A DNA stretch of 11,413 nucleotides from a virus (lineage: Duplodnaviria; Heunggongvirae; Uroviricota; Caudoviricetes): IMG/VR virus record IMGVR_UViG_2579779002_000004; one strand, 5' to 3'. The notes beneath the pieces were generated by a model. The model saw only the letters and a program-made list of their open reading frames with translations, searched no databases and had not been told where the DNA came from. Both the position numbers and the translations under genes were made by a program. Numbering within the stretch: position 1 is the stretch's first letter; each line of letters begins with the position of its first letter. This document shows positions 7,528 to 7,817 of this stretch, piece by piece.

Positions 7528-7599
7528 AGCCTCCTCCCGGGTCCAGAACGCACTCAGCCGGGTATGGTTCAGCCCATTTTTCCCGGCGTCTCATGCCGC

Positions 7600-7725
7600 A
7601 AATGTTAACTGCTGCCTGGTTAACATTTGCTGAAAAAGCCAGTTAACATTTTTTTCGCACAACAAACTGAATAATAAAGATAAAAACCGCAAAAATGCCC
7701 GGGCAGCCAGTTAACATGTTAACTG
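7600..7725. repeat. Cluster of five GTTAAC-core repeats with two palindromes; candidate cosB-like terminase recognition elements
   Basis: GTTAAC at 7604, 7619, 7642, 7710 and 7718. Inverted repeat AAATGTTAAC(9 nt)GTTAACATTT at 7600-7628. Perfect 18-bp palindrome CAGTTAACATGTTAACTG at 7708-7725. CCAGTTAACAT recurs at 7638 and 7708. Lies in the 290-bp non-coding gap between the HNH and terS genes. Confidence 0.35.
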
Positions 7726-7817
7726 CCCTGAAACAGGAATTTTTTCTCTGCGTGAGAGGGGGCGCGGTGTCCAAAGCGATCGTTTTTTACGCCGGATGAT
7801 ACCCCCCCGGGGTCGGG

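Follow-up and report, generated by a model that had tools for sequence, protein, structure and literature searches.

RESULTS

The window, by which we mean the whole stretch of 11,413 bp that was analysed, comes from a lambdoid prophage with a long tail, of the Stx-converting BP-4795/2851/1717/Lys8385Vzw type. Where the late and head modules meet, the order is HNH endonuclease gene, gap, terS, and terL, all on the minus strand, which is the location of cos in phages of the HK97 type (Table 1). The initial annotation had described the gap as flanked by an HNH gene and terS, and Pfam and PHROG matches confirm both neighbours. The terL product aligns with HK97 gp2 over 461 aa at 23% identity (BLASTP, E = 2e-11) and is 47 to 60% identical to TerL of Pseudomonas, Burkholderia, and Xanthomonas (Xp10-like) siphophages. 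The order of the head genes is unusual, in that terL is followed by a 645-aa fusion of prohead protease and major capsid protein (S78 domain at residues 48 to 152, capsid domain at residues 386 to 635) and the portal gene comes only afterwards. A 353-aa open reading frame (ORF) after portal (671-1732, minus strand) gave only a weak, sub-threshold match to CBM_5_12 (2.4e-4). Between the spanin and HNH genes lies an ORF of 113 aa with a TonB_C domain (8557-8898, minus strand; Pfam 9.7e-15), which also matches PHROG 1267 "Rz-like spanin" (1.4e-42) and whose equivalent in Lys8385Vzw is annotated as "protein TonB." Beyond the lysis genes, an IS3-family insertion sequence (10172-11385, plus strand), consisting of orfA (10172-10498, HTH_Tnp_1) and orfB (10495-11385, rve integrase core), stops 28 bases short of the end of the window. 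The sole match in an Rfam scan of the whole window was the IS3 (ALIL) frameshift pseudoknot at 10453-10569 (121 bits), with no Rfam family in the gap.

The gap is 95 to 98% identical in about 94 phage records. These are long-tailed Stx1a-, Stx2a-, and Stx2c-converting phages and include BP-4795, 2851, 1717, YYZ-2008, and phi330 (genus Pankowvirus). It is carried by 1277 of 5426 complete E. coli genomes, with up to seven copies per genome, and stands without annotation in complete E. coli genomes and in RefSeq.

Table 1. Features of the packaging locus and its flanking genes. Positions are those of the window; distances count along the minus strand from the predicted cut, with 7756 as +1.
Feature	Position	Strand	Distance from cut	Remarks
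Portal gene	1729-3093	-		
Protease-capsid fusion gene	3305-5242	-		
terL	5306-6967	-		HK97-type family; PF03354 + PF20441
terS	6964-7527	-		GTG start; PF03592 (residues 1-56) 1.6e-8; PHROG 641 2e-68
HNH-terS gap	7528-7817			290 bp
Repeat-free leader	7528-7597	-		Ends in the present terS ribosome-binding site, GGAGG 7537-7533
Distal array	7598-7649			Three ATGTTAAC sites; last two form an inverted repeat with 12-nt arms
Distal ATGTTAAC site	7602-7609	+	+148..155	
Distal ATGTTAAC site	7626-7619	-	+131..138	
Distal ATGTTAAC site	7649-7642	-	+108..115	
T-rich spacer	7650-7707	-		58 bp; T-tracts every 8-12 bp
Proximal site, palindrome CAGTTAACATGTTAACTG	7708-7725		+32 to +49	Two ATGTTAAC 8-mers
A-tract block CTCACGCAGAGAAAAAATTCC	7736-7756	-	+1 to +21	A6 at +12 to +17
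cosN cohesive end (predicted)	7757-7766			CGCGCCCCCT minus, AGGGGGCGCG plus; from homology to Lys8385Vzw cos; predicted 10-nt 3' overhang
Conserved stretch TATCATCCGGCGTAAAAAACGATCGCTTTGGACAC	7767-7801	-		Between G run and cut
G7-run element CCCCGGGGGGG	7802-7812	-		G7 = 7808-7802, ends 45 nt upstream of top-strand cut
HNH stop codon TAA	7820-7818	-		Directly precedes cos core
HNH endonuclease gene	7818-8183	-		Pfam PF01844 3.7e-8; PHROG 589 1.8e-43
Rz-like spanin gene	9222-9773	-		

The position of the cut can be taken from a close relative. The Stx1 siphophage Lys8385Vzw (MT225100) was induced and its ends were analysed with PhageTerm (Zhang et al. 2021, PMC7946995). The phage was reported to be of the cos type with 3' cohesive ends, CGCCCCCCCT at the genome end being its cos, as derived from read-start statistics rather than from run-off sequencing. 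Its gap matches that of the window at 279 of 290 positions (96%), and the HNH-cos-terS order and the five ATGTTAAC sites are the same. The GenBank record of Lys8385Vzw ends with ...GGACACCGCCCCCCCT and begins with CTCACGCAGAGAAAAAATTCC... (CTCACGCAGAGAAAAAATTCCCGTTTCAGGGCAGTTAACATGTTAACTGG...), so the break falls exactly at the published cos. Since the record breaks at this cos and the two gaps are homologous, the cohesive end of the window can be placed at 7757-7766, where CGCGCCCCCT differs from CGCCCCCCCT of Lys8385Vzw by one substitution. The 3' cohesive ends are thus assigned by proxy, having been mapped in a 96%-identical phage and not in this prophage. Fixed 3' cos ends in a near-identical phage do not fit the permuted ends of headful (pac) packaging of the SPP1/SF6 type.

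The initial annotation had proposed the gap as a candidate cos region, and with a mapped cos and a record break point inside the homologous gap of Lys8385Vzw, it is almost certainly a cos site; the cut itself very probably lies at 7757-7766. A G-rich segment, GAGAGGGGGCGCGGTGTCC, had been suggested as the place of cosN. Its coordinates were one base off, the segment being at 7754-7772, and because the cohesive end maps to 7766-7757, the segment does contain cosN. At position 7763, inside the overhang, a G/C polymorphism is common in the relatives, so that co-resident prophages of one genome could differ in their sticky ends. The version CGCCCCCCCT is also present in the Salmonella phage FSL SP-016. 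Papers on phi330 and on seven Stx phages did not report virion end mapping.

Several blocks around the cut are shared with relatives. The same position is occupied by a G run followed by T/A in every relative that was inspected (Enterobacterales to Burkholderiales and Pseudomonas) and also in HK97 and phiL7; this run is possibly a cosQ-like or nuclease-positioning element. Attention had been drawn earlier to a palindrome here, CCCCGGGG at 7805-7812. The palindrome is present, but what is conserved is the G run at 7802-7808, and the CCCC half is not conserved in relatives. The gap between HNH and terS in FSL SP-016 measures only 106 bp and aligns with window positions 7816-7710 more closely than the adjoining coding DNA does, and about 20 Enterobacterales prophages, found via their TerS, share this block. 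The stretch at 7767-7801 aligns with these relatives better than the adjacent HNH coding DNA does. The order of blocks in the short-gap relatives is a G run plus TA, about 30 nt of conserved sequence, GGACACCGCGCCCCCTCTCACGCACAGAAAAAATTCCCC, and then TCTGGAGGGTGTAAAC-ATG-TTA-ACA. Phages of Pseudomonas, Bordetella, and Burkholderia and remoter prophages retain the G run, a stretch of the GAC(A)CCGC type, and CGCAGA(A)nT-CCC. The last of these persists whichever type of TerS the relative has, and either the TerS ring or TerL may read the A-tract block to which it corresponds (+1 to +21). Among 58 distinct E. coli versions of 7300-8183, 40% of the HNH columns are variable versus 4% of the columns at the 5' end of terS. 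The change falls around 7790-7817 and points to cos as a junction of recombination (mosaicism).

The terS side of the cut is dominated by a repeat. Five GTTAAC motifs had been noticed in the gap, and they are present at 7604, 7619, 7642, 7710, and 7718, making up five of the seven copies in the window against a whole-window expectation of 1.5. Each of them extends to the 8-mer ATGTTAAC, which occurs five times in 11,413 bases, always in the gap (0.23 copies expected; none of 200 shuffles reached five). All five sites lie between +32 and +155 on the terS side of the cut, where a cosB of the lambda type would have at least three copies. The perfect 18-bp palindrome reported at 7708-7725 is found there. 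The inverted repeat is real as well, with a spacer of 9 nt as described, but its arms, at 7598-7609 and 7619-7630, are 12 nt long and not 10. The spacer between the proximal and distal sites (7650-7707) is, to judge from its T-tracts, possibly bent intrinsically. It stands where lambda has an IHF site, and on this point the window departs from the lambda type: the IHF consensus WATCAANNNNTTR, with at most one mismatch, was not found in 7528-7817.

The protein that would read these sites has a suitable architecture. In TerS, a disordered linker joins an N-terminal helix-turn-helix domain resembling that of SF6 G1P to a helical C-terminal part. In the AlphaFold2 model, residues 1 to 55 form a confident four-helix bundle (pLDDT 83 to 90), and the best structural match of this domain is the DNA-binding domain of SF6 TerS (4zc3; target-normalised TM-score 0.84, rmsd 1.6 Å), in agreement with the match to PF03592. 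The window TerS is a member of the SF6/PBSX family and not of the HK97 gp1 family, and both the Pfam match and the fold match provide the sequence-reading helix-turn-helix that belongs to a lambda-type cosB. The cos phage PaP3 has an SF6-like TerS in which sequence-specific binding is determined by the helix-turn-helix domain (PMC7672466). Seven loci from Massilia, Variovorax, Nitrosomonadales, and other prophages (L032 and L035-L040) have the C-terminal half of TerS in common with the window and keep the layout of HNH, G run, and core. A short Arg/Gly-rich arm (MAGVKGRSGGAR..., MAGVKGRSGGARPGAGRK...) replaces their helix-turn-helix domain, a natural domain swap in the part of TerS that recognizes DNA.

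Comparison of the repeats across related prophages had been proposed as a check on their role. All five motifs are kept in 50 of 50 full-length distinct gap versions from 80 IMG/VR relatives, and two versions cut by contig ends retain every motif that they cover. Within E. coli, however, this result is uninformative: the terS-proximal half of the gap is nearly invariant, so that retention of the sites there says little. More can be drawn from 33 related loci, in which TGTTAA/TTAACA is enriched about 40-fold between -200 and +15 of terS relative to the flanks. The short-gap loci, whose hosts have 49 to 67% GC, all begin terS with ATG(GCN)TTAACA, and TTA accounts for only 1 to 6% of the Leu codons in the late genes of these relatives. 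In the window and in the Comamonadaceae loci L029, L034, and L042, which have an upstream array, CTG or CTA stands at the terS start instead of TTA. The Alysiella locus L031, with an expanded gap and clustered TGTTAA-type repeats, starts terS with ATG-ACA-AAA and has no Leu codon there. The three Comamonadaceae loci show an inverted pair, TGTTAAAGCTTTAACA, after the core, followed by a spacer of 53 to 66 bp, two or three direct TGTTAAAG repeats, and terS. This layout parallels the palindrome, 58-bp spacer, and three sites of the window in unrelated spacer sequence. None of the seven loci whose TerS lacks the helix-turn-helix has the TGTTAA motif upstream of terS, and the motif was also not found in L033 (Acinetobacter), whose TerS does have this domain. 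The TTA codons, the enrichment, the Comamonadaceae layout, and the seven loci without the motif together speak for recognition of the motif as DNA by TerS; these signals share ancestry and are not phylogenetically independent. One motif copy also lies over conserved residues of TerS (Leu-Thr), so its conservation is partly due to coding. Weighing these comparisons, we have moderate confidence that TerS binds the ATGTTAAC repeats, which makes them candidate sites of the cosB kind.

A different role for the repeats beside a real cos core would be regulatory, with control of terS transcription or translation, for instance by TerS itself or a different protein that binds DNA or RNA and occupies the start region of terS. 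The site overlaps the ribosome-binding site and start codon of terS in most relatives, which is a typical place for autoregulation, and hairpins might arise from the palindromes in the late mRNA (centroid fold). However, the RNA fold of 7515-7760 is no more stable than shuffles (z = -0.62), and the distal repeats of the Comamonadaceae are direct and not inverted, so no conserved hairpin is present. The sites of the window are also 72 to 200 nt away from the present terS start, on its upstream side. A scan of the gap found no terminator and no promoter or terminator signal on the coding strand; the sole promoter-like match was weak, lay on the plus strand, and was made of the repeats themselves. 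We consider regulation as the explanation of the repeats unlikely, and such a function would be compatible with one in packaging.

The short-gap relatives also bear on how the array arose. In about 20 of them, GGAGGGTGTAAAC-ATG-TTA-ACA stands in the position of the palindrome and serves terS as ribosome-binding site and start codon. There, ATGTTAAC is made up of the start codon and codons 2 and 3, and an imperfect inverted copy, TGTAAACAT, precedes it. The window has a perfect palindrome at this place, preceded by a ribosome-binding site that has degenerated from GGAGGG to CAGGGC. Because the short-gap relatives start terS here and the ribosome-binding site of the window has decayed, the ATG at 7717-7715, inside the 18-bp palindrome, is a vestigial ancestral terS start. 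The segment 7528-7707 is absent from FSL SP-016 and the approximately 20 short-gap relatives and is an insertion of about 180 bp specific to the E. coli lineage. It brings three of the five ATGTTAAC sites together with the new ribosome-binding site and GTG start. CCCGGG occurs at 7536-7541 and 7698-7703, that is, 9 nt and 6 nt inside the ends of the insert, within weakly similar inverted sequences. We rejected the idea that the insert is a dispersed, MITE-like mobile element, as it was found at 2945 places in E. coli, compared with 2999 for the whole gap, and only in the cos/terS context. The vestigial ATG opens a hydrophobic ORF of 24 codons, MLTGCPGIFAVFIFIIQFVVRKKC (7643-7717, minus strand), which ends in the third GTTAAC. 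This ORF is intact in 70 of 80 relatives, carries frameshifts in 4 of 80, and shows three synonymous versus three non-synonymous changes. As frameshifts are tolerated and the substitutions give no sign of coding selection, we do not treat it as a gene. Small ORFs in the gap had no match to a PHROG family.

With such an insertion, the three distal repeats could be debris without function, left by the event (insertion or duplication) that moved the start of terS, and only the core and the palindrome would then matter. FSL SP-016 and the approximately 20 short-gap relatives presumably package normally without 7528-7707, the two CCCGGG copies near the insert ends would suit such an origin, and conservation within E. 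coli does not speak to the question. Against this, chance is a very unlikely source of three exact 8-mers within 48 bp, an equivalent distal array is present in the Comamonadaceae, the expanded gap of the Alysiella locus also has clustered TGTTAA-type repeats, and the insert is not a dispersed mobile element. We therefore regard debris as an improbable explanation and continue to read the distal repeats as candidate TerS sites.

DISCUSSION

The cos of the window is an ordinary element and not a new kind of packaging system, and it is essentially the same element as the cos of Lys8385Vzw. The accessible parts of the paper on that phage (PMC7946995) give the 10-nt end sequence only, and the repeats, TerS sites, and a conserved core were not found in them. 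We also found no literature that describes the repeat array, the vestigial terS start, or how the motif is linked to the helix-turn-helix. With the cohesive-end sequence already published, what is new is the repeat array as a cosB-like site, a modest inference. An array of this kind is an expected feature of a cosB-like region, so the finding is modest and extends a known kind of system by one member.

HK97 is like the window in having HNH upstream, terS downstream, a homologous TerL, and 3' overhangs. Its overhang is 10 nt long, and cleavage of its cos needs or is stimulated by the HNH protein gp74 (PMC9410871). A G8 run is located 42 nt before the cut, which is also the record end, and a T-tract comes after the cut; the corresponding distance of the G run in the window is 45 nt, and an A-tract comes after. 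The minimal TerS site that has been mapped in HK97, at +15 to +29 and containing the T-tract, is an A/T-tract block by the cut and not a repeat array (PMC11331095), and the A-tract block of the window resembles this site in kind. Unlike the window, HK97 lacks a ATGTTAAC array, the distance from the cut to the start of its terS is 49 nt versus 230 nt in the window, and its gp1 has no similarity to the window TerS and no match to PF03592. The HNH proteins of the two phages are only distantly alike. The A-tract in the HK97 minimal site, together with the conservation of 7736-7756 in every relative regardless of TerS type, could mean that TerS reads only the A-tract block and that the repeats bind something else that bends or organises the DNA, whether the HNH protein, a nucleoid protein of the host, or a similar factor. 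However, the window TerS is unrelated in sequence to HK97 gp1 and has the SF6-type helix-turn-helix, the motif tracks this domain (it is missing from all seven loci without it), and there is no IHF consensus in the gap. Recognition of the A-tract block alone thus seems to us very unlikely, and we keep to an array bound by TerS.

Lambda is like the window in its tripartite layout, with an upstream element, a staggered cut, and an array of sites for the helix-turn-helix of TerS between the cut and terS. The span from the cut to the terS start is also similar in the two, at about 190 to 230 bp. The lambda order is cosQ-cosN-cosB, with the sites R3, R2, and R1 bound by gpNu1 and a spacer after the first site (PMC6739421). 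Lambda differs from the window in its 5' overhangs, the absence of an HNH protein, the winged helix of gpNu1, and unrelated site sequences. The N-domain fold of the window TerS is the same as that of SF6/SPP1 G1P and PaP3 TerS (4zc3), but SF6 and SPP1 are headful (pac) packagers, and the TerS N-domain is all that they share with the window. We know of no sequence similarity between the SF6/SPP1 sites and ATGTTAAC.

Taking these comparisons together, we think that 7598-7812 is probably a cos site of two layers, a conserved cutting core and a cosB-like array bound by TerS. TerL, presumably helped by the adjacent HNH protein, would cut concatemers with a 10-nt stagger at CGCGCCCCCT (7766-7757, minus strand). 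Cuts at 7756/7757 and 7766/7767 would leave 3' cohesive ends, and the end packaged first is predicted to start at 7756, with packaging running from there toward terS. The helix-turn-helix domains of an oligomeric TerS would bind the five ATGTTAAC sites from +32 to +155 and would probably bridge the proximal pair and the distal triplet over the T-tract spacer. TerS on the array would thereby anchor the terminase beside the cut, place TerL and the HNH protein on the core, and set specificity and direction. We infer the roles of the G run, the A-tract block, and the spacer, as well as the involvement of the HNH protein, from the sequence and its relatives. Ancestrally, a single, imperfectly palindromic site would have overlapped the terS start codon. 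About 180 bp with three more sites would then have been inserted in the E. coli lineage, and terS would have gained its new GTG start and ribosome-binding site.

A further-reaching proposal, which we find rather doubtful, is that the site is modular. A universal core of the HK97 type (G run, cut, and A-tract), read by TerL, the HNH protein, and the TerS ring, would have had an exchangeable specificity module grafted onto it. If this were true, the module would be the SF6-type helix-turn-helix domain plus its ATGTTAAC sites. As the single site overlaps the terS start in most relatives, occupancy by TerS would throttle its own synthesis. The multiplication of sites upstream, in the lineage of the window, the Comamonadaceae, and Alysiella, would then have uncoupled packaging recognition from terS translation, and the relatives that swapped the helix-turn-helix for an Arg-rich arm would have lost the sites entirely.

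The two-layer site that we favour also has practical consequences. The cut site and the likely TerS sites define which DNA can be packaged, and this concerns plasmids that carry cos, satellites, and prophages of the same cell that have this cos in common. Through the site in the gap, moreover, the packaging specificity of HNH-dependent cos phages with a TerS that is not of the HK97 type becomes open to testing. A known cut site permits correct linearisation and annotation of the genomes of Stx-type phages. For more distant phages, the record ends of phiL7 are compatible with the layout of the window if that record starts at the other nick, and the Pseudomonas phage records (MK510966), which are partial, corroborate the cut point weakly. 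The record of Pseudomonas phage CF53a is virion derived and terminates, close to the homologous point, in a fold-back artefact (last ~70 nt of L005, MK510966.1, and first 20 nt of L004). In comparison with phage Alize, it is short of about 20 nt surrounding the cut-site homologue, which is what the loss of a 3' overhang during end repair of the library would give.
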